DNA of 46,252 nucleotides from a bacterium (GTDB lineage: Bacteria; Verrucomicrobiota; Kiritimatiellia; SPBP01), in assembly GCA_037134535.1 (NCBI GenBank), contig JBAXMA010000003.1:1-46252 (forward strand), given 5' to 3'. The position numbers and the translations under genes were made by a program. Shown piece after piece: positions 1 through 23,683 of this stretch (positions are counted from its first letter, which is position 1; every line of letters begins with the position of its first letter). The notes under the pieces were generated by a model. The model did no database searches and was not told the origin of the DNA. It saw only the letters and a program-made list of their open reading frames with translations.

Positions 1-1100
1 CTATTTAACAAAGACCCCGATATTATGGGGTATTTTGCAATATCGGAGGGCCTTATCATCATCCCCAGGTCAGCCTTGTTGAGAACTACTATTGTCCTCT
101 CGGGAGGCAGGCTATTTAGTTCCAGTCTGTCTGCATCGCTGAGCTGTTGGGATGCATCCAGTACATGAATGTGAAGGTCGGCTTTTTCAATCTGAGATCT
201 GGCACGGAGGACGCCCTGGCTTTCAACATCACAGTCAGTTGAGCGAAGGCCGGCAGTATCAACCAGACGAAGCAGAACGCCATCGAGCAGAAGATTCTCC
301 TCGATGGTGTCGCGAGTAGTTCCCGGCAAGTCGGCGACTATTGAGCGATCGACTCCAAGAAGAGCATTGAAGAGAGTGGACTTGCCCACATTCGGTTTAC
401 CTGAGATTACGGTCAATGCGCCATCTCTCAGGATGTGGCCTTCGTTCCAGGTGGAGAGCATATTCATCAAATTCGCGAGAAGGGCTTTTGCCTGAATAGC
501 TTTCTCGGAGATTAGAAGTGGCGGCATTTCGTCGTCAGCAAAGTCCAATGCCGCCTCAAGGGCTGTAATAAGCGAGAGTATATTAGCATAACTCGTTGCG
601 CACCAATCACTTAGCGCTCCATTAAGTTGTTCCACTGCTGCTGTAGCGGCACGATCTGAAGATGCGCGGATGAGGTCCAGCACGGCTTCCGCTTGGACGA
701 GATCGATCCGTCCATTGAGAAAGGCTCGTTTTGTGAACTCGCCGGGTTCGGCAAGTCGCGCACCAGAATCCAGTAGTCTTCGCAGAATGCGCTGTGCCGA
801 TATACTGCCGCCGTGACCCTGAATCTCAACAATATCCTCACGCGTGTAGCTGTGGGGTGCCCTGAAGATCAGAAGAAGCGCCTCATCAATATCGGGAGCC
901 GGGACCTGGTCGGAAGATGGGCCCATTACATAACCGTGGACGAACGTGCCGCCTTTTCGTCTGGACGGTGGCGGCTCACTGCAACGGAAGACTCTGTCCG
1001 CCACTTTCAGACTTTCAGGGCCCGATACACGGATCACGCTTATTCCGCCCTCGCCAGCGGCCGTTGCTATTGCTGCAATTGTGTCTTCAGAGGTTTTCAT
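1..1100 (-). CDS. mnmE: tRNA modification GTPase MnmE (3' end runs off the window)
   Basis: Manual translation of the minus strand from ATG at 1100 gives MKTSEDTIAAIATAAGEGGISVIRVSG. It also contains AEPGEFTKRAFLNGRIDL, G1 GKPNVGKSTLFN, GTTRD, DTAGLR and NKAD. It is absent from the ORF track because it has no stop in the window. Confidence 0.96.
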   Translation of the reverse strand, partial: MKTSEDTIAAIATAAGEGGISVIRVSGPESLKVADRVFRCSEPPPSRRKGGTFVHGYVMGPSSDQVPAPDIDEALLLIFRAPHSYTREDIVEIQGHGGSISAQRILRRLLDSGARLAEPGEFTKRAFLNGRIDLVQAEAVLDLIRASSDRAATAAVEQLNGALSDWCATSYANILSLITALEAALDFADDEMPPLLISEKAIQAKALLANLMNMLSTWNEGHILRDGALTVISGKPNVGKSTLFNALLGVDRSIVADLPGTTRDTIEENLLLDGVLLRLVDTAGLRSTDCDVESQGVLRARSQIEKADLHIHVLDASQQLSDADRLELNSLPPERTIVVLNKADLGMMIRPSDIAKYPIISGSLLN

Positions 1101-1316
1101 GGTTCAGTTACGATCATATCGGTATCCGCGACTGGCCGCAATAACCGCTTTCAACTATCCCCGGGCGTTTCGAGGTGGACCGTGCTTTGGTCCTTTCTTT
1201 CACGACCGGCCGACGATATAGTCCGTCAGTTTCCATGGGTATCTATACTCAACATCAGAAACGTGTGCGCGGAGTGGCAGTCTCTTTTGACGGTTTGCTG
1301 TAACGAGGATATCGAC

Positions 1317-2429
1317 ATGCACCACCAGGAACTGGATAGAGGACGTTTCTTGAGTTGGCCGTTGAAGGAGCGTGGCAACAGGGTCATGATCGAACGGGAC
1401 GTGGTCTCCGTGGATGCGGAACCGTGCGGCCTCTCCGCACAGGTGCTGGATACACTACACGAAACGGTCGCCAGGATTGTGAAGGCTCGCAAGAATGGCA
1501 AGTCGGTCATGTTGACCTTCGGTGCGCATGCCATAAAAAACGGGATGGGCCTGGTTCTTGGTAAACTGATAGAGGACGGCTGGGTCACACATCTTGCCAC
1601 CAATGGCGCCGGCGTTATCCACGATTGGGAAATAGCCTATCAGGGCGCAACAAGTGAGGATGTGCGAGCCAATATCGAGAGCGGCCGGTTTGGTGCCTGG
1701 CAGGAAACCGGATATTTAATCAATCTGGCGATCGCCGTCGGCGCATACGAGGGACTGGGCTACGGTGAGTCGGTCGGAAAGCTGATACAAACTGATAGTC
1801 TGCAGATTCCGAACACGTCTGATTTGATCAGCGTGGTGCAGCACGTCAGAACTGATCCGGACCAGAGCGCAGCTGCAGCTGACCTCCTCGCAACAATAAA
1901 GAGTCAATCGCTCGCGGCCGGTGAGCTTCAGGTGCTTCACCCGTTCAAGCAATATAGTATTCAGGCTGCGGCCTATCGTCTCAATGTTCCCTTTACCGGG
2001 CATCCAATGATCGGCCATGATATCATATATAACCATCCTGCCAATAATGGAGGGGCGATCGGGCGTGCCGGGGTGAGGGACTATCTGGCATTTGCGGATA
2101 GTGTTGCGAGGCTCGACGGAGGAGTTTATCTCTCCGTAGGATCTGCAGTGATGTCGCCCATGATTTTCGAGAAAGCCCTGGCTCTATGTCAGAACCTTTG
2201 CATGCAGAAGGGTGGACGCATCACGGATCATTTTGTTGTTGTTGTCGATCTTCTGCAAGCCGGCGGCGAATGGAAAGATGACAGAGAGCCACCTCCGTCA
2301 AGTGCATCATACTATCAGCGCAACGTGAAGACCTTCAGCCGGATGGGTGGGACGATGCGCTATGTATGCGCTGATGGCCGCGATGTGCTTCTGGCATTGT
2401 ACAGGGAATTACGGCGGGAGCAACGTTGA
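1317..2429 (+). CDS. Deoxyhypusine-synthase-like (GSU2086-type) protein of unknown function
   Basis: Start reassigned to ATG 1317 (GAGGA RBS); the track's 813 start overlaps mnmE. Motifs: FGAHAIKNG, HLATNGAGVIHDWE, TGHPMIGHDIIY, GGVYLSVGSAVMSPMIFEKAL. Confidence 0.7.
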   Translation: MHHQELDRGRFLSWPLKERGNRVMIERDVVSVDAEPCGLSAQVLDTLHETVARIVKARKNGKSVMLTFGAHAIKNGMGLVLGKLIEDGWVTHLATNGAGVIHDWEIAYQGATSEDVRANIESGRFGAWQETGYLINLAIAVGAYEGLGYGESVGKLIQTDSLQIPNTSDLISVVQHVRTDPDQSAAAADLLATIKSQSLAAGELQVLHPFKQYSIQAAAYRLNVPFTGHPMIGHDIIYNHPANNGGAIGRAGVRDYLAFADSVARLDGGVYLSVGSAVMSPMIFEKALALCQNLCMQKGGRITDHFVVVVDLLQAGGEWKDDREPPPSSASYYQRNVKTFSRMGGTMRYVCADGRDVLLALYRELRREQR

Positions 2430-2454
2430 CAGAAACAAGTCGGTCATATAGCAT
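2426..2454 (+). promoter_or_regulatory. Sigma70-like promoter for the pseudo-nuclease/cyclase operon
   Basis: TTGACA (2426-2431), 17 bp spacer, TAGCAT (2449-2454). Confidence 0.6.
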
Positions 2455-2588
2455 CGCTCTAAATCTGCAGGATTGGTACGGTCCTGGTACCGTACCGTCG
2501 ACTCCATCAGAGCGGACTTGAATTCTGGCTTTTTGTGATCGAGTGGCGGTTGCGGCAGGCCGAACCCATGACAAGGAGGACCAGTTTC

Positions 2589-3590
2589 ATGAGACGATTG
2601 TGTTGCGTTCTAGCTCTCTGTTTTGTGGCGACATGGCTGTTCGCGGCGGAAAGCGAGCACGTCATTCTTGGTAAGCCTGTGGGCGGATACTCCGTCAACC
2701 ATCTTGGATATTCCTGCGGTTACAGAGCAAAGCTGGGCTGTTCTGCCTGGGTTGCATACCATCTGAAGTCCGAGTATTTCGAACAGGACCGGGTTCTCAA
2801 AGGTGGACAGCAGTTGTATTCGGATCCTGCGATTACTGCATCCGGTCTGAATGCGCCTGGACCTGACGATCTGAAAGAGTCCAGTCTGATCCCGCTTTTT
2901 TTCCTGCCGCATGATAGCGCGCTGGGGCGGGGCCAGGCGTGCGAGAAGGAGGTCTACTCACTCGCAAATGTGGCGGCAGCCAGGGAGAGTGAGACCTTGT
3001 TCAAAGTATGGCGCGAACTCGATGCTGCAATCAGGCAGTGGGCGCAGGACTATAAGGAAGTATGGGTTATTGCCGGGCCGATTTTTGCGGAAGACCCGGA
3101 GAGAACCGCCTCGCGGAAGATGGCCATTCCAAGTGAGTATTATAAGATTGTTGTACGAAAAGATGGTGACACTATCAAGACGGTAGCGTTCAGAATTCCA
3201 CAGGACGCATCAGGAAACATCAGTCAGCATCTTGCGTCAATTGTGGACATTGAGAAACAGACGGACTTGGAATTCTTCCCGGATCTTCCGCGCGATCAGC
3301 GCAAAGCCATCAAATCGGTTGCTCAGCCCATGTGGGAACTTGCTGCCACGAAAGGTGGTGCTCCTGTGAAGAACAAGGGTTCGGCTGCCATGGGCGGCAG
3401 TGGGCCCGCCAAAGGCGGGGCCCAGGGGAGCGATGCCGGCAAGAGTGCTGCCGCGGCCGGAGGCGACGGAAAAGTGTGGGTCATCGGGGACAAGTTCTAC
3501 AAGGCGGGCTCCAAAGAATACGGCAAAGGCAACGGCACGACAATGGATTACGAGGCAGCTACCCAGCTTGGTTTTGTGCCGGGAAACTAA
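2589..3590 (+). CDS. Secreted DNA/RNA non-specific endonuclease (NucA/Serratia family) homologue, predicted catalytically inactive
   Basis: AAGGAGGA RBS before ATG 2589 and a signal peptide. Family motifs: GYSCGY..SAWVAYHL, WVIAGPIF, IPSEYYKIV, IVDIEKQTDLEFFP. DRGH is replaced by IPLF. A G/A/K-rich linker leads to a small C-terminal domain. Confidence 0.8.
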   Translation: MRRLCCVLALCFVATWLFAAESEHVILGKPVGGYSVNHLGYSCGYRAKLGCSAWVAYHLKSEYFEQDRVLKGGQQLYSDPAITASGLNAPGPDDLKESSLIPLFFLPHDSALGRGQACEKEVYSLANVAAARESETLFKVWRELDAAIRQWAQDYKEVWVIAGPIFAEDPERTASRKMAIPSEYYKIVVRKDGDTIKTVAFRIPQDASGNISQHLASIVDIEKQTDLEFFPDLPRDQRKAIKSVAQPMWELAATKGGAPVKNKGSAAMGGSGPAKGGAQGSDAGKSAAAAGGDGKVWVIGDKFYKAGSKEYGKGNGTTMDYEAATQLGFVPGN

Positions 3591-3611
3591 TGAGGCCTCG
3601 CAATAGTACTC

Positions 3612-5855
3612 ATGAAGAAGTTTTCTCCCGTAATAATTGTCGGTCTGCTCCTCACCCTGTTCTGCGCCGGACTTCACTTTTATGAGCCCGAATTCATCAG
3701 CGCAATCTCGCTCAAGACTTATGATGCATATATGAGGATCGCCAGAGTGCCGCCAAAGGCGGACCGTGTGGTGCTCATAGATATTGATGAGGAAAGTCTG
3801 GCAAGGTACGGGCAGTTCCCATGGCCACGGTACCTGCTTGCCGACCTCACCCGCAAGGTGCTTGATGGCAAGGCATCGGTGCTTGCATTTGACATCACGT
3901 TCGCAGAGCCGGACGGTCAGTCACCAAACATCTTGAAGGCTAATCTGAATTCAAGATTCAACCTTGATATCAAGCTGAATGGAATACCGGACAATCTGAT
4001 GGACTTCGATAGTCTTTTCGCAGGCGCTCTCTCAAAGGCTAAGAAACGTACGATCCTCGGATGTTTCATGTATCCGGCCACAAACATGACGGAGAACGTG
4101 GTTGAGGTTGATCCACACTACAGGCAGCACTTCTACACAAAAGCAGATAACAATACGGGTAAGATCAGCGACTTTCTGATGAAATCGAGCAAGATGACCA
4201 TTTCGATTCCGCGGCTTAGTGAAGCGGCAGGAAACAATGGTTTCTTCAACTCGTTTCCAGACGCGGACAATGTGGTGCGACGGATCCCTTTGTTCATAGC
4301 ATACGGGGCGAACAGATTCTATCCATCTCTTGCTGTTGAGGCTGTCCGGATAGACATGGGTATCGACAAGATCGGCATCGAGTGCGGATTTCAAGGGGTG
4401 GAGCGGCTACGTCTTAAAGACGCGGTCATTCCGACGGATCGTCACGGGCGAATGCTTGTGAACTTCAGGTCGTTCGCCATCAGCGGAGAAGAGAAAGGAA
4501 TTCGTTCCTTCCCATCCAGTCCTGCATGGAAGGTGCTTTCATCAGACTTCGACACAAAGTGGTTCTCAAACAAGATTGTGTTTGTCGGTACGTCAGCAGC
4601 GGGATTGAACGACCGGCGGGCTACGCCGCTGGCAACAGAGAAAGAGGCGGAAATCGCCGGCGTTGAAGTGCATGCAGCGATAGTGGACAACATTGTGAGC
4701 GGTGACGTTCTCTATCAACCGGAATGGCATATGTGGGTTGATCTGGCCACCATAATACTCATGGGAGTATTCCTGACAATTCTCATAGACCGGGGGAAAG
4801 CTCTGCTTTCATTCGTGGCAATGGTCCTTGTCCTCGGGTTGGTTCTGGGTGTGAGTTACTGGTTGTTCCAGTCGGTACACTTCGTATTTATCCCGGTAAA
4901 GCTGTTTGCTTCCACAATCATTATCTATCCGGTGCTCACCATGATCAGATTCTGGCAGGAAGAGCGCCAGAAAAGACATGTGCGCAATATGTTCGGTACC
5001 ATGGTTTCGACCGAAGTCCTGCGCTATCTCGAGAACAATCCGGAAAGCTTTTCGCTGACGGGATTCAAAGCAGAAGCAACAATGTTCTTCTCAGACATTG
5101 CCGGTTTTACCACAATCTCTGAATCTCTACAGCCCGGACGTCTATCAGAACTGCTCAACCAGTATTTGAGTCCTACAACAAAGATAATAATGGCGCGCAA
5201 CGGATACGTGGACAAGTACGAGGGTGATTTGATTATGGCAGAGTGGGGCGTGCCGTTTGCGACTGACGATCATGCGGTTCAGGCTTGTCTGGCGGCAATT
5301 GAACAGCAGGCCCTGCTGGATGAACTCAGACCGGTCCTCAAGCAGGAGTTCGGACATGAAGTTCACGTCCGGATGGGAATCAATACAGGAACCGTAACAG
5401 CAGGCAACATGGGGTCCGATAATAGATTTCAGTACACGGTAATCGGTGATGCGGTCAACCTCGCTCGACGGCTTGAACCCGCAAACAAAGACTACGATAC
5501 CAGGACTATTATCGGAGAAAGCACGTTTGAACGGGCGCGTAGTGCTATCGAAGCCCGACTGCTCGACAAGATAGTCGTAAAGGGGAAGAGTAAGCCCGTC
5601 CTGATCTATGAATTGCTCGGGAAAAAGGGCGAGGTTTCTGAACAGGTCTTGAGAACGGCAAAGTTGTACGAGGAAGCTCTGGCTCTCTACTTCAATCAGA
5701 AATGGGCTGAATCGATAGCCTGCCTCGAGGGTATTCTTGGAGAAAACCCTGCGGATGGGCCAAGTGCAACCCTGCTGCAGCGCGCAAAAGAATTCCTGCG
5801 CACAGCTCCGGGGCGGGACTGGTCCGGCGCGTATCGGCGTGAAGACAAGGAGTAA
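3612..5855 (+). CDS. CHASE2-domain class III adenylate cyclase
   Basis: CHASE2 motifs IDIDEESLARYGQFPWPR, DADNVVRRIPL and GVEVHA, followed by three TM helices. Cyclase motifs FSDIAGFT, VDKYEGD and YTVIGDAVNLARRLE, plus a helical C-terminal tail. Confidence 0.93.
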   Translation: MKKFSPVIIVGLLLTLFCAGLHFYEPEFISAISLKTYDAYMRIARVPPKADRVVLIDIDEESLARYGQFPWPRYLLADLTRKVLDGKASVLAFDITFAEPDGQSPNILKANLNSRFNLDIKLNGIPDNLMDFDSLFAGALSKAKKRTILGCFMYPATNMTENVVEVDPHYRQHFYTKADNNTGKISDFLMKSSKMTISIPRLSEAAGNNGFFNSFPDADNVVRRIPLFIAYGANRFYPSLAVEAVRIDMGIDKIGIECGFQGVERLRLKDAVIPTDRHGRMLVNFRSFAISGEEKGIRSFPSSPAWKVLSSDFDTKWFSNKIVFVGTSAAGLNDRRATPLATEKEAEIAGVEVHAAIVDNIVSGDVLYQPEWHMWVDLATIILMGVFLTILIDRGKALLSFVAMVLVLGLVLGVSYWLFQSVHFVFIPVKLFASTIIIYPVLTMIRFWQEERQKRHVRNMFGTMVSTEVLRYLENNPESFSLTGFKAEATMFFSDIAGFTTISESLQPGRLSELLNQYLSPTTKIIMARNGYVDKYEGDLIMAEWGVPFATDDHAVQACLAAIEQQALLDELRPVLKQEFGHEVHVRMGINTGTVTAGNMGSDNRFQYTVIGDAVNLARRLEPANKDYDTRTIIGESTFERARSAIEARLLDKIVVKGKSKPVLIYELLGKKGEVSEQVLRTAKLYEEALALYFNQKWAESIACLEGILGENPADGPSATLLQRAKEFLRTAPGRDWSGAYRREDKE

Positions 5856-5903
5856 CGATGTGCTCAAAGAGGTGTAATGTGGAGACTGTCAGTGCTTGCG
5901 GAA

Positions 5904-6728
5904 TCAGGTTGAACTGCTGAGAACCATGTTCTCCATGGCTGCTTTTGTGGCCGGGAAAAACTGCCTGGATTGCCGGACGATCTCGTCAATCTCGGTGTCT
6001 GTCCGGGTTGTCTCATGATGGGTGAGGATCAACTCGCTTACACCTGCCTCAAGGGCGAGGTGGACGCCCATCTGCCAATTGCCGTGTCCCCACCCGAGGT
6101 GTTCAATGTATTCGTCGGGCGTATACATCGCGTCGCAGATCAGAATATCAGCGCCGTGACAGAATTTCAGAAATCCAGCGGAAACGTCGGATTGAGTGTG
6201 TTCATGGTCGGTTGCGATAACGATGACTCTGTCACCGCATTCGACCTTATATGATAGGCAGCCCTGCGGGTGCGACACAGGACACCATGAGATCCGCACA
6301 CCATATATTTCAAGGAAGTTCCGGTCCAGCGGCAGGTGCTCAAAGCATCTGCCGGTACCGGAGGCCGTCAGACTGCCCGGCCAGTATGGCTTGGCGAACA
6401 ATGTCCTGAGAGTTGTCGGCCAGTCATCAGTGCGAGCCGGATCACCCATGAAGGTTATCTGCGTGCGAGAATCGTAGAGCGCAGACAAGGACGGCAGTCC
6501 GATAATGTGATCAAGATGAAAATGTGTAAACATGATCGTGATCGGTGGTATGGCGGAACAGCCGGCCAGATCACGGCTCACCGAGGATATGCCGGTCCCG
6601 GCATCGAACACGATCAGCCCCTTGTCTGTCTGCAGGCTGAAACAAGTGGTATTGCCGCCATGCCTGAGCATGTTGCGCCTGCAGACAGGCATGCTTCCTC
6701 GAGCACCGCGTATAATGAATTTGTGCAT
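5904..6728 (-). CDS. MBL-fold metallo-hydrolase (RNase Z/TaR3-like; possible phosphodiesterase)
   Basis: GARGSMP, GGNTTC, DAGTG, THFHLDHIIG (HxHxDH), TDHEH, WGHG, THHE. Confidence 0.88.
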   Translation of the reverse strand: MHKFIIRGARGSMPVCRRNMLRHGGNTTCFSLQTDKGLIVFDAGTGISSVSRDLAGCSAIPPITIMFTHFHLDHIIGLPSLSALYDSRTQITFMGDPARTDDWPTTLRTLFAKPYWPGSLTASGTGRCFEHLPLDRNFLEIYGVRISWCPVSHPQGCLSYKVECGDRVIVIATDHEHTQSDVSAGFLKFCHGADILICDAMYTPDEYIEHLGWGHGNWQMGVHLALEAGVSELILTHHETTRTDTEIDEIVRQSRQFFPATKAAMENMVLSSST

Positions 6729-6822
6729 GACAATACCGTCCCAATTTGGTCAGATACTGATGTGAACGCCATCGACAGTCAAGTCCTTGTGGCAACAAGT
6801 CCGTAGCAGGAGAGAAGTCGCA

Positions 6823-8466
6823 ATGGTTGATGTGCCCGACAAACAAGCCGGAAACTCGCAGCTGTCCGTATCCCAGAGAAGTTTCGCGTTTGTACAGGGA
6901 ATGGGACAGGTCTTCGGGCACAGCGCAATCTACGGGTTGTCTCATTCGGTAACAACCAAGGCAATGAACAACTGTTTCACTATTCTCAGCGAAGTCCTTC
7001 GCGAGAAAGCCGACATAAACATCTCCATCGCTGAGGATGAACTCCTCGTAGACGGTGTCAGGGTGGAGAAGGCACTTCCGGCCATATCTGCCATTTCAAA
7101 ACGATTATCGTCCCTCTCTATTGCCAGTTTCTCATTGACCCGCGGAATCACAGCCAAGGAGCTCGGGAATGTTTTCGAACTGTTACAGGCAACTCCCGAT
7201 GAAATGAGGGCTGCAGGCGGATTTGCTGTCGTGATCAGCACAGTTGGACTAATGCACGTGCGATCAAAGAGAGTAACCACCCAGCAGATCACTGAAGATG
7301 AAGTGGTTGTGTCAAGAAACAGACTGTCCGAAGTTGTCGGTAAGGCCGATATCGGGCATGTGGTCAAGTTCCTGAAAGGCGAGGTTGATTCTTCATCGCC
7401 AGGCCTCAGTGAGCAACTTCAAGCATGCGCAGACGATGTGCAGCAGGTTGGAGCAATGGTTATGCAGGCCGTGAAGCAGCCCGGCGGTTCTGATCCGACA
7501 GAATCGCCTGATAAGATAATCGCGGCAGTCCGGCGGCTATACGACAGCATGTCAGTGGGGGTGGGAAGCCGGACACAAAAAGGCAATAGAGCTCTGGTCA
7601 AATTTCTGGAACAGCTTGAAGGTACGCTTCTGCAGAATATGCGCAAGTCTCACGGAGGAGAGACGCCCCGGGCGGAGGCCATGCTGACACAGGGTCTTGA
7701 AGAAATGAAGGATGAACTAAGGATTGATTCTCTGGCGGGTGAATACGCACGAAAGCGCAGTGCAATCGTCACCAGCGAGAAGCGCATTCTCAGGTATATT
7801 GAGTCTGTAGGTTTGGATGTGGTGCAGAAGACAGGACTGAAAAGCCGATTGATAGAACGAGGGTTGACCGTTGATGAATGGGACGATCTTCTGGACAAAA
7901 GCGGTGTCGGGGACAATATTGCAGCATCGGCTGATCGGTTGGCTGAGGGCATGGCGAGCGCAGAAGTGATGACGGATCTCGCAAAAGCATTGTCGCTTCT
8001 CGCGGCTATGGGCAAAATCGATTTGACAGCCTCTGCTCCCACGGCCATTGCGGCGGCGGATGTCGACCGTGTGCTGGTGCAGGTCGGCGAGGCTGTCGCA
8101 AAGCTTGTCGATCAGACTGACCACAAAATAGAGGCATTCAAGCGCAAGGTAAAAGAACGCCGGCGGGGTAAGCGGGAGACGGGCATAAGCAGGAAGGCGA
8201 TTGTGGCATTTCTTGCCGAAATTGTGCAGGAGTTGCGTCAGCCGCTTGCAGTTATTATGAGTGTCGTTGACTCGATGAAATCGGGAATGCTGGGAGCCCT
8301 CTCGCCACAGCAAACCGCGATGCTCGGTCTGGCGGCGAGCAGTGCGGAGCGTCTCGATCTTCTGATCAGCAAAGTGGCTGATATTTCCGGAATGCCCGTT
8401 GGTTTGTCGCCTGACGCAACGATTCTAGATGCGGTTTACGAAGGTGGAAAGACTGACAAGCTATGA
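6823..8466 (+). CDS. Hypothetical cytoplasmic protein with C-terminal degenerate HisKA (DHp) domain
   Basis: AGGAG RBS before ATG 6823. The C-terminal FLAEIVQELRQPLAVI...AERLDLLISKVADIS resembles an H-box with H replaced by Q. No HATPase domain. ATGA overlap with the next gene. Confidence 0.75.
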   Translation: MVDVPDKQAGNSQLSVSQRSFAFVQGMGQVFGHSAIYGLSHSVTTKAMNNCFTILSEVLREKADINISIAEDELLVDGVRVEKALPAISAISKRLSSLSIASFSLTRGITAKELGNVFELLQATPDEMRAAGGFAVVISTVGLMHVRSKRVTTQQITEDEVVVSRNRLSEVVGKADIGHVVKFLKGEVDSSSPGLSEQLQACADDVQQVGAMVMQAVKQPGGSDPTESPDKIIAAVRRLYDSMSVGVGSRTQKGNRALVKFLEQLEGTLLQNMRKSHGGETPRAEAMLTQGLEEMKDELRIDSLAGEYARKRSAIVTSEKRILRYIESVGLDVVQKTGLKSRLIERGLTVDEWDDLLDKSGVGDNIAASADRLAEGMASAEVMTDLAKALSLLAAMGKIDLTASAPTAIAAADVDRVLVQVGEAVAKLVDQTDHKIEAFKRKVKERRRGKRETGISRKAIVAFLAEIVQELRQPLAVIMSVVDSMKSGMLGALSPQQTAMLGLAASSAERLDLLISKVADISGMPVGLSPDATILDAVYEGGKTDKL

Positions 8467-10004
8467 CTGATGCACAGAAGTCTTTGAATGCGGACACACA
8501 CCCTCTTCCTCTGCCGCCTGAAAACGATAATCCATATCAGCAGTTGCTCGACACAGTCTGCGACGCAGTTCTGATCAGCACAGTCACAGGAGATGTTACG
8601 GATGCCAATCTCAGCGCGGCTGCTGTTCTGCTCTATGACGTGGAAGAACTGAGGCGGATGTCCATTGCCAGTATCATCGCCATCGCTGACGCCAATCTCC
8701 TGCCAGCTATTCTGACGGGTCTTGATACGAACAGGCATGTCCTCCTTGAGGCAACGTGTACTCGTAAAGACGGCTCACGCTTTCCGGGGGAGATTGCCGT
8801 AAGCCGCATACACAATGGCGACAAGACGAGACTGTTTCTTTTCATTCGTGATCTGACAGTCCATAAGCAAACGGAAACAGCACTGCGGGAAACGCTTTCC
8901 CGGCTTGAGATGCAGGATCGGGCGAGGGCGCTGCTGGTATCGAATGTGACCCATGAGCTGAGGACTCCGCTTACGTCGATAATATATGGATTGTCAAACT
9001 TGCTGTCTGGAGTTGTCGGGCCGGTTACGCCGCCGGTCAGACAATATCTGGAGAGATTCAATCGTGAAGGCCAGAGATTACTGAGCACGGTAGAGGATAT
9101 TCTGTATCTGGAACGGATAGAGACAAAGACACTGCGTCTTTCCAGCATCATGGCGTCCGTCCCCAGGCTTGTGGCAAGAGCTATCGCAGCGCTTGAGCTT
9201 AGTGCCCGGCATAAACACGTCACCGTGAACCGCGACTATGCAGCAGATGCGATGTTCACCTGCTGTGATCCTGCGAAGATGAACAGGGTGCTGGTCAACA
9301 TTATCGGTAATGCCATCAAGTACACTCCCGGCGGAGGAACCGTAACGATTTCACTCGTGAAACACCCAGGCAAGTCTCAGACTCTCTCCGTTAGAATTGA
9401 AGACACAGGTGTCGGCATACCTCCTCACGCTATCAGCAGCGTCACGGACCGGTACTACAGGGTTGGAGATCAGGCTGACGGAGCAGGACTGGGACTTGCC
9501 ATTGCAAAGGATATCATCGAGATGCACAGCGGCAGTATCCAGATTGCAAGCCCGCCGCCCGGCAGAAACGCCGGAACCCTTGTCAGCATAAACATTCCGT
9601 TGGTCGACCAGCCAGATCTTCTAGTTCTGAGCACCGATGCCGCTACGACACAAAGAGTCATGGAACAGCTCATTCCTGCTGGTTATAATGTATCGGCAGT
9701 GACCGGCTCCAAAGAAGCAATGGACCTGGTCAGAGACAAGCATGTTGATCTGTTGATCGTCAATATTCCACTGCAAGATTCTGACGGAACAGGAACTATT
9801 GCCGCGATACACGGTAGCGAATATAAACGGCGAATACCAATTGTAGTGATCACGGCCGGCGACTTGAGCACTGCACAGAAGGAGATATTCTCCTGCCTCT
9901 CCATACCAATTCTGAAGAAACCATGGCAGCAGGACGAACTGCTTGATGGCATCGAGCGAGCCTTCCTTGCGTCGGCAGCGACAGCTGGAGAAGAGGACCT
10001 CTGA
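8463..10004 (+). CDS. PAS-HisKA-HATPase hybrid histidine kinase with degenerate C-terminal receiver
   Basis: PAS (RKDGSRFPGE), H-box THELRTPL, N-box NIIGNAIKYT, G1 DTGVGI, G2 GAGLGL. The receiver has LLIVN in place of the phospho-Asp. Confidence 0.92.
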   Translation: MTDAQKSLNADTHPLPLPPENDNPYQQLLDTVCDAVLISTVTGDVTDANLSAAAVLLYDVEELRRMSIASIIAIADANLLPAILTGLDTNRHVLLEATCTRKDGSRFPGEIAVSRIHNGDKTRLFLFIRDLTVHKQTETALRETLSRLEMQDRARALLVSNVTHELRTPLTSIIYGLSNLLSGVVGPVTPPVRQYLERFNREGQRLLSTVEDILYLERIETKTLRLSSIMASVPRLVARAIAALELSARHKHVTVNRDYAADAMFTCCDPAKMNRVLVNIIGNAIKYTPGGGTVTISLVKHPGKSQTLSVRIEDTGVGIPPHAISSVTDRYYRVGDQADGAGLGLAIAKDIIEMHSGSIQIASPPPGRNAGTLVSINIPLVDQPDLLVLSTDAATTQRVMEQLIPAGYNVSAVTGSKEAMDLVRDKHVDLLIVNIPLQDSDGTGTIAAIHGSEYKRRIPIVVITAGDLSTAQKEIFSCLSIPILKKPWQQDELLDGIERAFLASAATAGEEDL

Positions 10005-10070: not shown

Positions 10071-10144
10071 GTAAAGCAGAGGGTTGTTCTGGCGCAGGGA
10101 GCAGAGAGGTGCTGATACCATGATGCAAGATGAGGGCGATACCC

Positions 10145-10930
10145 ATGAGTGAACAGAAGAATTTGATTCTTGCGGTCGACGACGATACAGACTTACTGGC
10201 AACTCTGGGAGATTTCCTGCGCTTTGAAGGTTATGATGTGGAAGCGGTGTCGAGTGGAGAGGCCGGGATCGCCAGGCTGGCTGAAATCGTTCCTGATCTG
10301 ATAATGCTTGATATCAGCATGCCCGGAATGGGCGGGATAGGCTTCCTGAATGCAAAGGCTCAGATAGGGCGTGTTGCCAAGGTGCCTGTGATGGTCTTTA
10401 CCGCCCGGGCGAACATGGAGAAGTTTTTCCAGGATGTGGAAGTGGCGGGTTTCGTGGCAAAGCCGTGTGATCCCGTGGCGCTGCTGAATGAAATCACGAG
10501 GATAATCGGATCAACCTCCGCGCGGGCCGGGGGCGGAGGCGGGAAACGTGCATCCGCGGTCGGTCGGAAGGTTCTCATCGCAGAGGACGAAGCGGGCCCG
10601 CGTGAGTCACTGATACGTGCCTTTGTTGATGCCGGGTTTGAAGTTGTATCAGTATCGAGCGGTCCGGAGGTTGTTGAGAAAGCGATCGTGGAGAAACCTG
10701 ACGTGCTTCTCCTGAAGCTGGTAATGGAAAGAATGAACGGCGACGCGGCTGCGGCCATGCTGGGCGAAATGCCGAGCACCAGATCCATCCCGATAGTGTT
10801 GTTTGATGATACAGGGTCGCAACCGCGTGACCGTATTCTCAGCGAGGACAGGCCTGGCAGAAGACGGCTGATCAGGAGCCTCAAGCCGGACGACCTTATT
10901 GCAGCCGCAAGAAGTGTGTTGGATGTGTAG
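10145..10930 (+). CDS. Response regulator with two tandem receiver domains and no output domain
   Basis: REC1 is canonical (VDDD, MLDISMP, FTA, AKP). A Gly-rich linker precedes REC2 (IAEDE, LLLKLVM), which lacks the phospho-Asp. Confidence 0.88.
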   Translation: MSEQKNLILAVDDDTDLLATLGDFLRFEGYDVEAVSSGEAGIARLAEIVPDLIMLDISMPGMGGIGFLNAKAQIGRVAKVPVMVFTARANMEKFFQDVEVAGFVAKPCDPVALLNEITRIIGSTSARAGGGGGKRASAVGRKVLIAEDEAGPRESLIRAFVDAGFEVVSVSSGPEVVEKAIVEKPDVLLLKLVMERMNGDAAAAMLGEMPSTRSIPIVLFDDTGSQPRDRILSEDRPGRRRLIRSLKPDDLIAAARSVLDV

Positions 10931-17206: not shown

Positions 17207-17953
17207 TCAGGCGGATGCAGCCGAACCAGCCTGTCCGGGTCGTGTAAGTGACAGGAATATCTCCTCCAGGTTACCGTCCACGCCGCTCTGCTTCGTTAAT
17301 TGTGCCATCGTACCAATTGCCACAAGACGCCCTGCTGAAATTATTCCGATTCTGTGCGCAATGTCCTCTGCCAGAGCTAGGATGTGTGTGGTTAAAAACA
17401 CGGCAGTCCCGGCCTTTGCTTTTTCAATGAGGAGGTTCTTGATCATCCGGATGCTGTGGGGATCCAGGCCCACAAGCGGCTCATCAATGAAAAGCGCCTG
17501 CGGCGAGTGAAGAAACGTGCAACAGTATGCAAGACGCTGTCGCATACCGTGTGACAAGTCATTGATCAGCACATGGCGATGCTGTGCCAGATCGAACATG
17601 GCGAACGCCTCTTCCATCTCCTGATCCACGTGTTGCCTTGGCACGTTGTAAAGGTCTCCCGTAAAACGGAAGAATTCGGCAGGGGTGAGCCTTTCGTAAA
17701 GGAACGGCGTATCTGGAATATAGCCGATTATCTTCTTCACCGCTACGGAGTTGCTGCGGACGTCCAGACCGGCAATGCTCATGGTTCCACTCGAGGGGGT
17801 CACCAGGCCGGTCAGCATCTTCAGTGTAGTTGTTTTTCCTGCTCCGTTAGGGCCCAGAAAGCAGAATATTTCTCCAGCAGGAATCTCCAACGACAGATCC
17901 CGGACCGCGTAGAAATCGCCGAATCGCTTTGTGAGATTTTGTAAATGGATCAT
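17207..17953 (-). CDS. ABC transporter ATP-binding protein
   Basis: Walker A GPNGAGKTT, signature LSHGMRQR, Walker B LFIDEPLVGLDP, H-loop TTH. Confidence 0.96.
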   Translation of the reverse strand: MIHLQNLTKRFGDFYAVRDLSLEIPAGEIFCFLGPNGAGKTTTLKMLTGLVTPSSGTMSIAGLDVRSNSVAVKKIIGYIPDTPFLYERLTPAEFFRFTGDLYNVPRQHVDQEMEEAFAMFDLAQHRHVLINDLSHGMRQRLAYCCTFLHSPQALFIDEPLVGLDPHSIRMIKNLLIEKAKAGTAVFLTTHILALAEDIAHRIGIISAGRLVAIGTMAQLTKQSGVDGNLEEIFLSLTRPGQAGSAASA

Positions 17954-19449
17954 TTTCTCTCCTGAGCAAGTACCGTGACATTCAGTCTTCCTACCATCTG
18001 TGCCAGGGCGAATTGCTCGGCGAACTCGCCCTCAATAAGGGCGATATGGGCTGCATCCACCGCAGTTTGTCCGAAAGTAGGGTCCATTTCTATCCAGTCT
18101 CCAGCATAGACTGCCGGCCAGGCGTGATAGCAGAAGGCCTCATAGGCTTCGGAGTATGCCAGGCCGATCTTCACGCTTGCGGGTATGCCGGCCGCGCGGG
18201 CAAGCGCAACGAACAGGTATGTGTGCTCGTTGCAGTCTCCGCGCCGCGTGCGCAGTACTTCAGCCGCTGACGGCACGCCAGGTGAGGCGACTTTCTCGAT
18301 GTTCTTGTAGACCCAGTTGCAGATGGCGATTGCAGAATCCATCACGTTTGTCTTGCCGGCCGTCAGCGAGGTTGCCAGTTTCACGATATCGGGTTCTGTT
18401 GCTTGAATGAAGGGCGAGGAGCCCAGATAGTCTTTCATTCTTTCCGGCCCAGGGGGAACAGCCGCGACAGTAGCGGGTATTCCGGCGGCTCTTACTGTAA
18501 GGAGAAATGCCCCGTCTGCCTCGTCTTCAATGGTCTGCCGGTTGCTGAGAATTCCTGATGACTTGGATGAAACGCCTCGCACCCGGAGTTTCAGCAAGGT
18601 GCACTCCCTCGGATTTGTGACGGCGACGTTCGGGTGCACCGCCAGGGCGTTGAGAAGATCTTCTGCATCAGCTCCCGTAGACACCGATGCCATTGCTTCC
18701 TCGGCGCCACATGCCTCAACGACCAGATCTTTCAAGAGTGTCTCCGCCCTGAGAATTGTGCTGTTGTCACCGATCCAGGATTGTGAACTGCTTCCCATGT
18801 ATTCTACAGCAAACACGGCAACATTGGTTTTGCCTCCCCGGAATTCGATCGTTTCACGTGGTAATGCACGAATGGTGACCAGCGTCGGACTCAAGGTGAG
18901 AGGTTCAAGAGTGCGTGTGGTCATGCTTTCGCCGGGCTTCATCCGGCTCATGGCGAGATCCATTCCCGGCGAGTAGACCACAACATCGTCCGGTATTGAG
19001 AGTGATCGTCTGTCTTTGGCGCCACCGGCATCGACTGTAACGTCAAACGTATTCCCGGTACTGCGCCTCCCGTGGACAATCGTTGAGCTGTGCCTGGACA
19101 GTGCTGCCATCCGGAACGATGTGAGACGATACAAAACATCCAGCCTGACGTCTGTGCTTACAGTGATTGATTCCCGCATCCCCATGAGATTGAGATTGAG
19201 CATCAACAGGTTCTCGACTCGATAGCGGGATATGGCGTTGTCGTCGTCGGTTTCAATCCGTGAATGGCTGTATCCCACAGGAGAGTTCTTGAGGAGCAGC
19301 CTCATCCATGTGTCCTTCACGACGATGCCCTGGGGGATAATGTCACGGTATCCGTTCAGGGAATGCGTGAAGTATCCTGGAAAAGCTTCGAATCGCACAA
19401 ACCATGCCGTGGTACAAAACCACGCTACCAGTATGAGAAGCCGTTTCAC
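17950..19449 (-). CDS. Exported or membrane-anchored transglutaminase-like (Cys-His-Asp) protein
   Basis: N-terminal hydrophobic segment; RGDCNEH, ALARAAGIPA, YHAW, WIEMDPTFGQ. Confidence 0.9.
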   Translation of the reverse strand: MKRLLILVAWFCTTAWFVRFEAFPGYFTHSLNGYRDIIPQGIVVKDTWMRLLLKNSPVGYSHSRIETDDDNAISRYRVENLLMLNLNLMGMRESITVSTDVRLDVLYRLTSFRMAALSRHSSTIVHGRRSTGNTFDVTVDAGGAKDRRSLSIPDDVVVYSPGMDLAMSRMKPGESMTTRTLEPLTLSPTLVTIRALPRETIEFRGGKTNVAVFAVEYMGSSSQSWIGDNSTILRAETLLKDLVVEACGAEEAMASVSTGADAEDLLNALAVHPNVAVTNPRECTLLKLRVRGVSSKSSGILSNRQTIEDEADGAFLLTVRAAGIPATVAAVPPGPERMKDYLGSSPFIQATEPDIVKLATSLTAGKTNVMDSAIAICNWVYKNIEKVASPGVPSAAEVLRTRRGDCNEHTYLFVALARAAGIPASVKIGLAYSEAYEAFCYHAWPAVYAGDWIEMDPTFGQTAVDAAHIALIEGEFAEQFALAQMVGRLNVTVLAQERK

Positions 19450-20558
19450 TGACTTTGTAACTCATTACGAACTTCAGCCAGATCTTTTTCAATCGCCTTG
19501 ATTTCCGGATCACTTTCTATGGCGGCTGTGCGTCTGCCCGCCGCAGACGCTGCAATTTCTTCCGCCTTCTCAAGCTCCTGCTGACAGCGCAGCATCTGGC
19601 CTTTCATGCCACGCATTTCCTCCAGCACGTCGCTGCGCTTCTGGCCCGTGGAACTATTCATCGTCTCTTCGAGCTTCATGGCCCTGTCACGCAAGGCATT
19701 ATAGCGGAGTTGAGCTGAATCCCTGCTCCGTTCGACCTCGGTTACTGGCCGGCTATCTGTAAGAGTCTTGCGACGTGCCTTGCCGCGTGCAATCAGTTCG
19801 GCTTCCCTTGTTCGCAGTCCCTGCAGTTTTTGCTCCTGCGGATCCTCTATTGCTGACACTTCTTCGAACGTTCCGGCAGATCCGGGCGCAGCCTCCGGCG
19901 GCTTGACAATTGTGACGGCCGGTCTGATTGGCGGGCGCGAGGCTGTCGGTCGTGTCGGTTTGGGGGTTGCTGCACTGTGGTGCTCAATGATAGTCGGAGC
20001 ACGTTGCCGGTTTTCCACCTTTGCAAGCTGCTCTTTCGCGGCCTTATCAGCAGGATCATCTTCAAGTATCTTCTTTGCAATTGCTGTAAGTTGTTCGTAT
20101 TGCTCCTGCTTCCATAATTCATCGAGCAATATCAGGCGGCCCATATTGATATTCCATTCCTGCGAGGCGGGCGAGAGGGCTCCATACGCTGCGTTGATAG
20201 CCGAGTCGGGCCCATCGTGAAGAAAGGTTCTGCCCGAGTTCCGCGCGGTCTGCAGGGGCTGATTGTAACCCTGATGGACGACCTCGGCCACTCTCTTTGC
20301 CGAACCAATCTTTCCAAGCCGGACTTCGCTCTCTATCAACCGGCTCAAAATGTCCTGATGAATGGCGGGATGGTAGCGGGCCCATGTTTCGTAGCGAACC
20401 AGTCGGTTCTCGGCCGCTGAGAAGTTGCCGCGCTCAATTTCTGTTTTTGCCTCTGCGAGCTGAAAGAGGACAATTGCGCGTCTGATCAATGGCGTTACCA
20501 TTACAATGAGAATGCAGCCAAGCAGCGCAGCCACCAGAGTGCCGATCAATGCTTTCAT
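19446..20558 (-). CDS. Membrane-anchored hypothetical protein (TPR-like helices, Pro-rich linker, coiled coil)
   Basis: N-terminal TM, TPR-like AKKILEDDPADKAAKEQL, P/T/A-rich linker, charged heptad C-terminus. Overlaps both neighbours. Confidence 0.75.
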   Translation of the reverse strand: MKALIGTLVAALLGCILIVMVTPLIRRAIVLFQLAEAKTEIERGNFSAAENRLVRYETWARYHPAIHQDILSRLIESEVRLGKIGSAKRVAEVVHQGYNQPLQTARNSGRTFLHDGPDSAINAAYGALSPASQEWNINMGRLILLDELWKQEQYEQLTAIAKKILEDDPADKAAKEQLAKVENRQRAPTIIEHHSAATPKPTRPTASRPPIRPAVTIVKPPEAAPGSAGTFEEVSAIEDPQEQKLQGLRTREAELIARGKARRKTLTDSRPVTEVERSRDSAQLRYNALRDRAMKLEETMNSSTGQKRSDVLEEMRGMKGQMLRCQQELEKAEEIAASAAGRRTAAIESDPEIKAIEKDLAEVRNELQSQ

Positions 20559-22096
20559 TACTTCTTTCCCGGCTTGGTATCGTCTTCCTCGCTCGCCTTG
20601 GCTGTTTGCTTGAAACGCAGGTGCGGAATCTGGTAGGTGCGCATAATTCGCTTGTTCGCTTCTTCAAGAGTTGCCTGATCGAGGATAATGTCTATTGACA
20701 TGGACAGAAGCCGGAAGCTCCTGAGCCCTTTATCCCGTTCAACCAGCGTGAAAACATCATCAATGTTTCGTACCGGATCCCCGTTAATGTGTGTGATAAC
20801 CTGATCTCGCAAGTGCTGGTAGCTGACATTGATCGGATCAGGCAGGACGTGAGACATGATAACAACTCGGTCACCGGGTCTTTCCGGCTTGTCGGCACTT
20901 GTGAGGTAGAGATGTACAAGCCTTGCGTCAGCGCTGGAATTCCAACCTTCGCCATATGCCCGCAGATAATCGCCGGTTAGCTCCCTGATCAGAAAACCGC
21001 CATCGGCAAGATACGCGGCCTGTTCGCCGGATGTGTTGTCGGGAATAAGCAGCTGATCATCCGTCCGTCTCGTCATTTCTACACTCACTGCCTTTATTTC
21101 ACCATTTCGAACGATTTTCGCATTAACGAGGTCGCCGGGATAGCGGTGGCCCTTGATCAGGTAGGGGAATGCAAGCCGCCCGAATTCGCTGTCTTTGTAG
21201 AAACCAAGCTTATCAACCGCGCAGTTGTCCCATTCAAGTATCACGTCTTGAGGCAGCAGCGACTTGGCAGCTCCAGTTCCTGATCTGACTTTCAGCACAA
21301 CAATCCCGCCGGGGAGGCGGTCCACCTTCAGATATCTCCTCTCGGCTGGGTCGACGAGCGGTGCCCACGAGAATCCCGCGCCCGCAAAACCACGGTAAAC
21401 CGGCTGAGCCATGTCGTCTATGAAATGCCGGAGAACCGGATAAGGCAGAAGCGTTCCCATGCGTGTATTGTGGTCATACCACATGATCAGGCCGGCAACC
21501 TTGTTACTGTGCAGAACGACGGCGCCCTGACCATTCACATTCATGTCTGCCAGCGCCGTGAAGGCAAGTACGCCTCCAAGGCCGGCCGGAAGGTCTGCCA
21601 CGGAGATCTCGACGATTGTTCCGGAGCTACGTGAAATTCCGTCTGTGTCATTGAACTGGACGATCTGGACAGGTGAGTCCTTGAGAACCTTTTCTGCGAG
21701 ACCGAGCGGAACAAGCCGGGGCATCCGGGCAGAATCCGCGATCTTCAGTACGGCAAGGTTTGCGTCCTTGTCAGATAATTCCACTGTAGCGGTATATTTT
21801 TCACCGCTAAGGCTCTCTTGAAGCTCAATCAGAGTATGATTACGAACAAGTTGCGCAATCGTCAGTACCCTGTTGGTGCCGATCAGGTAACCATAACCCT
21901 GCCGGACCGCCGGATCGGTCTTCTGCCATGGCATGAATGCGTCAAATCCCTGGCTTGTTACCATGACACGGACAAGACTGTTCTCCATGTCGTCTGGATA
22001 AGCCCGGCCCGGAATCACCAGCAGAATGAACACGAGCATTCCTGCCGCAATTTTGACTGTGCGCGAGATAAGATAGCTTTGGTTGATGGGTGGCAT
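20558..22096 (-). CDS. Deg/HtrA protease-PDZ paralogue, catalytically inactive
   Basis: Co-linear with the neighbouring protease (PWQ motif, two PDZ-like regions). TNAH is replaced by TIAQ, DCDLA by DANLA and NPGNSGG by NVNGQGA. Signal peptide present. Confidence 0.85.
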   Translation of the reverse strand: MPPINQSYLISRTVKIAAGMLVFILLVIPGRAYPDDMENSLVRVMVTSQGFDAFMPWQKTDPAVRQGYGYLIGTNRVLTIAQLVRNHTLIELQESLSGEKYTATVELSDKDANLAVLKIADSARMPRLVPLGLAEKVLKDSPVQIVQFNDTDGISRSSGTIVEISVADLPAGLGGVLAFTALADMNVNGQGAVVLHSNKVAGLIMWYDHNTRMGTLLPYPVLRHFIDDMAQPVYRGFAGAGFSWAPLVDPAERRYLKVDRLPGGIVVLKVRSGTGAAKSLLPQDVILEWDNCAVDKLGFYKDSEFGRLAFPYLIKGHRYPGDLVNAKIVRNGEIKAVSVEMTRRTDDQLLIPDNTSGEQAAYLADGGFLIRELTGDYLRAYGEGWNSSADARLVHLYLTSADKPERPGDRVVIMSHVLPDPINVSYQHLRDQVITHINGDPVRNIDDVFTLVERDKGLRSFRLLSMSIDIILDQATLEEANKRIMRTYQIPHLRFKQTAKASEEDDTKPGKK

Positions 22097-22111
22097 GTGT
22101 GAGTGTTTGGT

Positions 22112-23599
22112 CTATTTTGAATTAATTTCCGGCTCTATTTCCTGTTGTGTCCTGTGAATGCCATACCGGCGTTCAACTTCTGCTTCTGCCTTCGCCGCGG
22201 CCCGGGCATCTATCACCAGTACGTGCTCCATGCCTTCGAAACTCAGAACGTGGAAGCCGTCCTGAGGCTTGGCGATCGCATTTCTGAGATCCTTCAGGTT
22301 CCCGATTTTCACTCCGTTCGCCATCGCCACTATACCGTGCATGAACTGCTGATGGTATGTGTTGACGGGGTGGGGCAGGCGCGCGGTTAAAACCACAAAC
22401 TCCTCGCGGTTGGCGGCAAGATTGTCCGTTTTGGCGTAAAGAGAATAGTAGAGAAGTTGTTGCGCATTGCCGGTCCCGACCCCCTGACCGAGAGTCTTGA
22501 GGTACTCTCGAGTCAAGGGCGAAAACACCAGGCCTCCAATAATGAAACAGTCCGGGGTCTCGTCGTAGAGATTCCTGAACACAAAAGGATCACGCGGATT
22601 GGTCAGTGGCACAACGGCATTAGTTGTCGCTCCGCCACGCCAAATCCGGAAGTTTACGGATTCGCCCCATTGCTTGCGTTCCAGCAATTCGTGGTACTCC
22701 ATTGTCGTATTATCAAGCCGTACCGTACCATCGCTGCGAATCTCATGATTGTCGATAGCCATCAATACATCGCCCGGTTTCAAGACTTTTGCTGCAGCTC
22801 CGTATGGGTCGAGATAGTACACCACGACGCCCATCAAGTCGTTCTTCAGCTTGTACTCCTTTACGAGGGCGGGATTTTGTATAGACAGGGTGGCCGCACC
22901 AAGCTCCGGATAGCCGTTGTATGTGCCGTCGGAAATATCTGCAAGAAAGTGCTTAATTACGGGCATGGGGATCGCATAGCCGATGTTGTCGGCGTGCATG
23001 AGGCCCTGAAACGCCATTCCAACCACCTTGCCCTGATAGAATACAGGCCCGCCGCTGTTTCCCGGATTGATGGCGGCATCGACTTGCAGCACAAGATGAT
23101 TGTCCACTCCGCTGTGGCTGTACTCACCATAGTCGATCCTGGAGACGACTCCTCTGGTTACCGAGAGTTTTGTGCCGCCGACCGGATAGCCCAGTACAGA
23201 CACCTCGTCATTCAATTGCGGCAGAATTTCAGAAAGAGGCGCGGGTCGTGTGCCTTCAAAGAAATCAGGTTCGTCAACTTCCAGGATGGCAAGATCGCAG
23301 TCGTGCCCTATGAAACTTACCCGTGCCGCATGAAGTGTGGCCTCCTGATTCTTCTGCACCTGTATGAAGCGCGCATTGGAAACCACATGTGCATTGGTGA
23401 GAATTCGTTTCCGGCTGATGACAAAGCCTGTGCCGCTGGCCTGCATCGGAGGGAGCGCCTGCCACGGCAGCGCATAGTTCCTGTTCTGAACTGAAACGTA
23501 AATTTTTATGACCGCACTTGTAAGCAGCTTTTCGGCCGAGACGGCAGTGAGCGGTGGGATAAGCACGGCAGCCAGGAGCAAAGCCAGCAACCGCCTCAT
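22112..23599 (-). CDS. Deg/HtrA-family trypsin-like serine protease with PDZ domains (plant Deg2/Deg9-like architecture)
   Basis: Signal peptide MRRLLALLLAA; SGTGF, ILTNAHVV, HDCDLA, TRGVVSRI, QVDAAINPGNSGGP, GGLVFSPL. Confidence 0.93.
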   Translation of the reverse strand: MRRLLALLLAAVLIPPLTAVSAEKLLTSAVIKIYVSVQNRNYALPWQALPPMQASGTGFVISRKRILTNAHVVSNARFIQVQKNQEATLHAARVSFIGHDCDLAILEVDEPDFFEGTRPAPLSEILPQLNDEVSVLGYPVGGTKLSVTRGVVSRIDYGEYSHSGVDNHLVLQVDAAINPGNSGGPVFYQGKVVGMAFQGLMHADNIGYAIPMPVIKHFLADISDGTYNGYPELGAATLSIQNPALVKEYKLKNDLMGVVVYYLDPYGAAAKVLKPGDVLMAIDNHEIRSDGTVRLDNTTMEYHELLERKQWGESVNFRIWRGGATTNAVVPLTNPRDPFVFRNLYDETPDCFIIGGLVFSPLTREYLKTLGQGVGTGNAQQLLYYSLYAKTDNLAANREEFVVLTARLPHPVNTYHQQFMHGIVAMANGVKIGNLKDLRNAIAKPQDGFHVLSFEGMEHVLVIDARAAAKAEAEVERRYGIHRTQQEIEPEINSK

Positions 23600-23683
23600 G
23601 TTTGTCTGAAAGTTGAGTCCGATTAACCGTCTCACGATCACTCCCCTGATACAGATCCTACTCCCGCATTGTCGGCGCGAAAA

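Follow-up and report, generated by a model that had tools for sequence, protein, structure and literature searches.

A probably secreted Endonuclease_NS-fold protein with a degenerate active site lies upstream of a CHASE2 adenylate cyclase in a lineage of Kiritimatiellia

The stretch analysed here, positions 1–46,252 of contig JBAXMA010000003.1 from a Kiritimatiellia genome (assembly GCA_037134535.1; ‘the window’), encodes a 333-residue protein with the fold of Serratia/NucA-type nucleases (2589..3590, + strand), and immediately downstream, on the same strand, a CHASE2 adenylate cyclase (3612..5855). The first of these, referred to below as the dead nuclease, would be a pseudo-enzyme, in which the Endonuclease_NS fold is intact, the metal-finger active site has turned hydrophobic, and a linker and a small C-terminal domain have been added; it is most likely a non-catalytic protein of the cell envelope, with binding as its putative function. 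Its role would be older than, and independent of, the link to the cyclase. In the window’s genus the cyclase gene would have left its usual place behind genes for Slam and FecR-type proteins and come to lie behind the dead nuclease, in which case the cyclase would be without a partner, or would have a partner encoded elsewhere. That the protein is a pseudo-enzyme with a role of its own, and that its adjacency to the cyclase arose by chance relocation, is a reading we hold with about even confidence.

The fold of the dead nuclease was assigned by open reading frame, Pfam, alignment and model. The protein belongs to Pfam Endonuclease_NS (PF01223) as a homologous fold (E 1.9e-15, 57.6 bits against a cut-off of 23), the match covering only profile positions 119–222, which is the part beyond the active site. 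An AlphaFold2 model built from 100 sequences (mean predicted local distance difference test score, pLDDT, 90.1), which replaced a poor initial model from 10 sequences (pLDDT 55.8), showed the nuclease-like domain to be kept over residues 25–250 or thereabouts (2661..3338, +). Foldseek searches with this model recovered Serratia nuclease (1qae, E 1.7e-18, template modelling (TM) score 0.78), NucA (2o3b, TM 0.80), EndoG and EXOG, and also the catalytically dead nuclease-like domain of autotaxin (E about 2e-16). Residues 1–20 (MRRLCCVLALCFVATWLFAA; 2589..2648, +) resemble a signal peptide, with cleavage presumed: they form the sole strongly hydrophobic stretch of the protein by hydropathy, and the family alignment shows a hydrophobic N-terminus followed by A-(A/S/G)-E. 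The protein is probably exported or secreted, and the initial annotation, made from the letters of the window without database searches, had indeed described a signal-peptide protein of NucA/Serratia-type fold; the fold was borne out in full, and secretion stands as a prediction.

The active site has been lost. In an alignment of 100 sequences, comprising 17 members of the clade to which the dead nuclease belongs and 83 other relatives, the stretch from DDxKxS to GRGxxCExE could be aligned without gaps to the closest active relatives, which have a GR(G/N)xxCExE segment in common with the dead nuclease, and F104 fell at the position of the catalytic His. The segment that normally reads SGYDRGHLAP therefore reads SSLIPLFFLP, just as had been annotated, with I-P-L-F (residues 101–104; 2889..2900, +) where DRGH would stand. 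Not one of the 17 clade members has the Asp, Arg, Gly or catalytic His of DRGH, compared with 70, 75, 81 and 80, respectively, of the 83 other relatives. The Mg-ligand Asn is equally missing (0/17, compared with 80/83), its position being taken in the window protein by L137 (2997..2999, +), and the Glu of WxxLE, which is D145 in the window protein, was found in 4/17 members and in 83/83 of the other relatives. Pro and Gln of a conserved PQ were found in 3/17 and 2/17 members (81/83 and 80/83 elsewhere). Within the clade the lost catalytic-finger residues were replaced by hydrophobic ones (L/I, P, L, F), and the structural core was retained (W141 17/17, N127 16/17, G163 17/17, P164 16/17, E222 17/17).

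We call the nuclease dead because all 17 members lack the DRGH motif, catalytic His included, and the Mg-ligand Asn. The window protein has neither the general-base His in DRGH nor the Mg-ligand Asn and WxxLE Glu of an active nuclease, and on this evidence is predicted to be unable to cut nucleic acid by the mechanism of its family. Alignment and family columns thus uphold the active-site loss proposed in the initial annotation, and extend it to a whole clade, with the fold kept in the predicted structure. That the protein is still a nuclease by means of other residues, for example the nearby H108 in LPHD, for which the annotation had left room, is highly improbable. A pairwise phmmer alignment to Serratia nuclease did set H108 under His89, an arrangement that needs a different loop length; it was rejected, as the gap-free alignment with closer active relatives gives F104 at this position, H108 is found in 10/17 clade members only, and the metal-ligand Asn is found in none.

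The 17 sequences were gathered by combining a word-indexed search (10 proteins) with an exhaustive profile search, the latter yielding 5544 PF01223-type relatives, of which ten representatives (P0008–P0017) span the full length including the C-terminal tail. They form one clade (tree support 0.999), whose sister group comprises two sequences with intact His (P0021, DRGH; P0036, DMGH) and the separately degenerate P0018. The last of these (405 amino acids) has EKGD instead of DRGH, K at the Asn position, and a different, longer C-terminal region, and may represent a second, independent loss of activity.

A variable linker and a 40-residue tail are common to all 17 clade members. In the window protein the linker (residues 251–293; 3339..3467, +) is rich in Gly, Ala and Lys, and family linkers vary in both length and sequence; residues 263–285 have pLDDT <50 and are disordered in the model. 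The tail (residues 294–333; 3468..3587, +) follows the pattern G-x-V-W...Y-G-K-G-x-G...A-x-x-L-G-F, with W297, G314, G316, A324, G328 and F329 invariant in 17/17, and was modelled as a mini-domain of β-hairpin, strand and helix (pLDDT about 90). Pfam gave no match for the window’s tail, nor for any of the 17 tails at E ≤ 10, a tail profile searched against the PDB gave only chance-level matches (E at least 0.64), and a word-based search with residues 290–333 recovered only P0001 and P0002. Sub-threshold leads were obtained from Atlas, namely Ada_Zn_binding clusters (0.79–0.80) and, by structure, the tails of HHH_3 proteins, which are ComEA-like (TM 0.77–0.81). Identification of the tail as an Ada-type metal-binding mini-domain (PF02805) was rejected, there being no Pfam or PDB match and no conserved Cys.

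Two further PF01223 matches were observed in the window’s genome. One gene (G000:C473:3-713, −), cut by the contig end, encodes a membrane-anchored protein with GYQLGH for GYDRGH; it keeps the His and the Asn, and is probably active. The other (G000:C75:8743-8928, −) is a short Endonuclease_NS match (profile positions 157–222) in a 74-residue open frame with one in-frame TGA, and may be a gene remnant.

The downstream gene encodes an intact receptor cyclase of 747 residues, as judged from Pfam, hydropathy and homologues. A CHASE2 extracytoplasmic domain (residues 19–386; 3666..4769, +; PF05226, 5.7e-54) is followed by a hydrophobic block on the Kyte-Doolittle scale (residues 372–445 approximately; 4725..4946, +) that fits three membrane helices, and by a class III cyclase catalytic domain (residues 488–662; 5073..5597, +; PF00211, Guanylate_cyc, 9.9e-20). 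With its hydrophobic segments at residues 1–26 and about 372–445, the protein has the architecture of CHASE2 receptor cyclases. The catalytic set is present, D495, K535, D539, N616 and R620 being invariant, and D613 nearly so, in 55 cyclase homologues; these positions are taken to correspond to the class III residues that bind metal (two Asp), contact the substrate (a Lys/Asp pair) and serve the transition state (Asn and Arg). In all, 969 cyclase homologues were found at E ≤ 1e-20, their sources being metagenome-assembled genomes of Lentisphaerae and Kiritimatiellae.

The two genes are separated by 21 bp (3591..3611, +), between the stop codon of the dead nuclease (3588–3590) and the ATG of the cyclase (3612), in agreement with the distance, and with the intact CHASE2/class III cyclase, first annotated. 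This spacer contains nothing resembling a terminator, and it lacks a good Shine-Dalgarno sequence. Contigs from two further sequencing runs span the junction without differences, which excludes misassembly as the source of this gene order. The genes are probably co-transcribed, to judge by their layout. A Shine-Dalgarno-like AAGGAGG (2573..2579, +) lies 9 nt 5′ of the ATG at 2589. The ‘good sigma70 promoter’ reported ahead of both genes exists as a sigma-70-like match with 10/12 agreement (TTGACA-17-TAGCAT; 2426..2454, +); it is a consensus match only, in a region (2300–6100) with five such sites compared with 2.9 ± 1.8 in shuffled sequence.

Comparison of loci shows how far the two genes travel together. 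Among 401 genomes sampled from the class, a full-length clade member could be placed in its genome context only in the window’s own genome (G000, 83% complete), in a second genome of the same genus (G001, 92% complete) and in one from the sister genus of the window’s genus (G002); a phylum sample of 401 genomes had a full-length member in G000 only, and added none. Searches for clade members gave one locus from genome contigs and five from metagenome contigs (including L019), three of the latter being too short to contain a downstream gene. The gene downstream of the dead nuclease was visible at four loci, and the upstream gene at seven. In three of the four (the window, G001 and L019), all in or near one genus, the downstream gene is the cyclase, with spacers of 21 bp (window), 93 bp (L019) and about 248 bp (G001). 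In G002, the dead nuclease lies on contig C79, followed by genes for a Zn-dependent dehydrogenase and a PfkB kinase, and the single CHASE2 cyclase gene of that genome (58% identical) lies on contig C31, unlinked to it. The functional pair put forward in the initial annotation thus finds adjacency in 3/4 loci to its credit, but within one narrow lineage, with spacers of 21–248 bp, and with the two genes unlinked in G002.

Upstream of the dead nuclease, the signal-peptide peptidase SppA was found in 5/7 visible loci: directly upstream in L019, L021 and L023, and between the dead nuclease and a GSU2086-family gene in G001 and G002, where the GSU2086 family is thus two genes upstream. SppA is missing from the window, where the upstream gene is itself of the GSU2086 family (813..2429, +; NCBIfam NF052581, 2.9e-95); in L022 it is FGE-sulfatase-like. 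As the clade is also present where the cyclase lies elsewhere, and SppA is the steadier neighbour, the role of the dead nuclease would be independent of the cyclase. A role tied to SppA or to the GSU2086-family gene was considered and set aside, since only conserved neighbourhood links them. The GSU2086 domain occupies residues 174–531 of its frame, the first ~170 codons of which overlap the 5′ end of a divergent MnmE-like gene (3–1100, −), and its true start is probably well downstream of 813.

The cyclase, for its part, has a usual upstream neighbour of a different kind. An orthologue at E ≤ 1e-100 was present in 63/401 genomes of the class sample, and upstream neighbours were surveyed at the 30 best cyclase loci in that sample, 29 of which had at least 1.4 kb of upstream DNA. 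FecR-type proteins, recognised by a two-round profile derived from C-terminal regions of the FecR-type proteins in G002 and G007, were encoded directly upstream on the same strand at 19/29 loci, and 1.3 kb away at one more; Slam-type proteins (Pfam SlipAM or TPR_Slam) were directly upstream at three, making 22/29 loci with one or other of these directly ahead of the cyclase. The remainder had the dead nuclease directly upstream (2/29, the window and G001), a cyclic nucleoside monophosphate (cNMP)-binding/rhodanese protein directly upstream (1/29), or unrelated or opposite-strand genes (3/29). In G002 (contig C31, L060) a Slam-type outer-membrane protein, a 602-residue FecR-domain protein and the cyclase are encoded in that order, which recurs in G007 (contig C1, L059). 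This Slam/FecR-domain/CHASE2 cyclase cluster looks like the normal input module of the cyclase orthogroup, and the order Slam, FecR-type protein, cyclase is the ancestral one.

Two features of these partner loci were observed in passing. The FecR-type proteins, of about 600–930 residues, have a ~190-residue C-terminal domain in common that is without a Pfam match (fragments from L067 and L069 gave 0 families). A second type of CHASE2 cyclase locus, behind a cNMP-binding/rhodanese protein, was seen in G007 (contig C3, L061) and L086, the former also containing genes for an SH3b protein and an M48 peptidase; the position of the cNMP-binding/rhodanese gene hints at a feedback or effector gene for cyclic AMP (cAMP).

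The window and G001 do not have the Slam/FecR-type/cyclase cluster, as the dead nuclease fills that slot. SlipAM (Slam) was not found in G000 or G001, nor was a full FecR-type partner; G000 has only a truncated FecR homologue without the C-terminal domain, on another contig and beside unrelated genes. Chance relocation of the cyclase is favoured by the unlinked coexistence of both genes in G002, by the SppA link, by the variable spacers, and by the lack of clear divergence in CHASE2: the ratio of CHASE2 identity to catalytic-domain identity was 0.66 in the dead-nuclease lineage, compared with 0.71 in FecR-linked pairs, which gives no clear signal of extra divergence in the CHASE2 domain of that lineage. 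Several observations weigh against it. The dead nuclease lies on the same strand, and in the exact slot, in which 22/29 orthologous loci have an envelope partner gene. This slot has been kept across three diverged loci, with the dead nuclease at 56% identity, and the cyclase in G001 at 70% overall and 64% over the CHASE2 region. The failure to find Slam or a full FecR partner in G000 and G001 fits replacement of the partner equally well as chance relocation. Finally, gene context was out of view for 11/17 clade members, and L021, L022 and L023 show the upstream side only.

Replacement of the partner in any form, including one in which nucleic acid is sensed, is possible but on the whole doubtful. 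In its more general version the dead nuclease would stand in for the FecR-type protein, serving the cyclase as an extracytoplasmic accessory that presents or relays a signal; a protein, or another ligand that is not nucleic acid, would be the likelier occupant of its hydrophobic former active site. This version agrees with the position and strand of the usual partner, with the missing Slam and full FecR-type partner in G000 and G001, and with the adjacency kept in the window, G001 and L019. It also has published precedents. A CHASE2 sensor and a secreted FecR-domain protein form one operon in the biofilm-regulating system of Burkholderia, which resembles the present locus in having the secreted protein gene directly upstream on the same strand (PMC5192318, available excerpt); in the window, unlike in that operon and in the Slam/FecR/cyclase clusters, the upstream protein is a dead nuclease, and no Slam was found in G000. 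The CHASE2 class III cyclases CyaD1, CyaD2 and CyaK of Sinorhizobium meliloti likewise work with a separate envelope protein, their signal being reported as a plant protein sensed via the β-barrel outer-membrane protein NsrA (PMC13001267, available excerpt); in that excerpt, in contrast to the dead-nuclease locus, no nuclease-like component of the S. meliloti system is described. Even so, we consider such a substitution unlikely, since in G002 both proteins coexist and the cyclase keeps Slam and FecR, spacer length is variable (21 to about 248 bp), CHASE2 is not clearly evolving faster, and the arrangement is confined to one narrow lineage in which gene order may simply be inherited.

The initial annotation had gone further, suggesting that the dead nuclease binds periplasmic DNA or RNA fragments without cutting them, and thereby activates the CHASE2 cyclase to make cAMP. 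The clade resembles Serratia/NucA-type nucleases (PF01223) in its homologous fold, predicted secreted location and retained core residues, and differs from them in having lost every residue of DRGH and the Mg-ligand Asn, in its degenerate PQ, and in its extra linker and C-terminal mini-domain. A dead Endonuclease_NS-like fold put to non-cutting use is seen in the nuclease-like domain of ENPP1-3 and autotaxin, described as inactive in the available excerpt of PMC5714182, which names only the Smad and ENPP groups as being without the catalytic residue; the ENPP domain is fused to a phosphodiesterase domain in animal ectoenzymes, whereas the dead nuclease is bacterial, probably secreted, fused to no enzyme, and equipped with a separate tail. 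The tsetse proteins Tsal1 and Tsal2 are secreted PF01223 homologues without the general-base His and, according to the available excerpt of PMC3479092, high-affinity nucleic-acid binders that have lost only this His and retain residual activity. Loss of His alone does not describe the dead nuclease: Tsal keeps nearly all other catalytic, cofactor and substrate residues, but the present clade has lost Arg, Asp, Gly and Asn, and its PQ is degenerate.

Sensing of nucleic acid would be in line with a fold that is that of a nucleic-acid enzyme, and with the existence of dead DNA-binding relatives, namely tsetse Tsal1/2 (PMC3479092) and Smad MH1 (PMC5714182), as given in the excerpts cited. It would also be in line with the lower acidity of the nuclease-like domain than in relatives (median isoelectric point 7.8 compared with 5.9), and with the sub-threshold Atlas leads that place the tail fold on ComEA-like helix-hairpin-helix proteins. 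R149, which aligns with Arg131 of Serratia nuclease, a residue whose role there we presume, was retained in 15/17 clade members. Against these stand the loss, along with the His, of the Arg and Asp of DRGH, the Mg-ligand Asn and the PQ, with L/I, P, L and F in the finger, where Tsal keeps the corresponding residues; no DNA-binding family matches the tail in sequence; and the objections to a functional coupling with the cyclase raised above apply equally. With both the metal site and the Arg that contacts phosphate missing, and the finger turned hydrophobic, in contrast to Tsal, binding of nucleic acid by the dead nuclease is possible, though less likely than first assumed, and a sensing pathway from nucleic acid through CHASE2 to cAMP is decidedly improbable. 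Literature searches, confined to open-access sources, for a CHASE2–nuclease link or for bacterial dead DRGH nucleases returned nothing relevant. A pseudo-enzyme with its own role, beside which the cyclase has come to lie by chance, remains the reading we prefer.

Beyond the cyclase, a convergent metallo-β-lactamase (MBL)-fold hydrolase (5904..6728, −; Pfam Lactamase_B_2) resembles RNase Z and a cyclic-nucleotide phosphodiesterase only weakly, in NCBIfam matches that fall below threshold. It follows the cyclase in G001 and L019 also, and is thus a conserved downstream neighbour in the lineage. Next in the window is a gene for a 559-residue HisKA protein in which no ATPase domain was detected (6787–8466, +), and G001 and L019 likewise have this HisKA-only gene after those for the cyclase and the MBL-fold protein. 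In the window it overlaps by 4 bp a gene for a complete PAS/HisKA/HATPase/receiver hybrid kinase (8463–10004, +), with a receiver protein at 10130–10930. Further along, 17207–23641 (−) encodes two tandem HtrA-like proteases (Trypsin_2 and PDZ_3), a protein without a Pfam match, a transglutaminase-like protein, and an ABC ATPase with an ABC_tran_2 partner.

Animals are known to have dead His-Me-finger domains, in ENPP/autotaxin, Smad MH1 and tsetse Tsal; a stand-alone, secreted bacterial clade with a fully remodelled hydrophobic ‘active site’ and a tail domain of its own was not found in the open-access literature searches. The inputs of CHASE2 domains are largely unknown, and the fact that the present cyclase orthogroup is almost always preceded by a gene for a Slam or FecR-type envelope protein speaks for protein partners in the working of CHASE2. 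The dead-nuclease lineage provides a natural experiment in this respect, and, if the two proteins interact, would offer a tractable handle on how CHASE2 receives its signal. It is rather improbable that, in this lake-water lineage, the dead nuclease has replaced the FecR-type partner as a co-sensor coupling extracellular nucleic acid, or another bound polymer, to cAMP; if it has, CHASE2 would gain a defined input, and the protein would be the first bacterial pseudo-nuclease to act as a signal receptor. If there is no interaction, the dead nuclease would still be a clean example of the evolution of an enzyme into a binder in the bacterial envelope.

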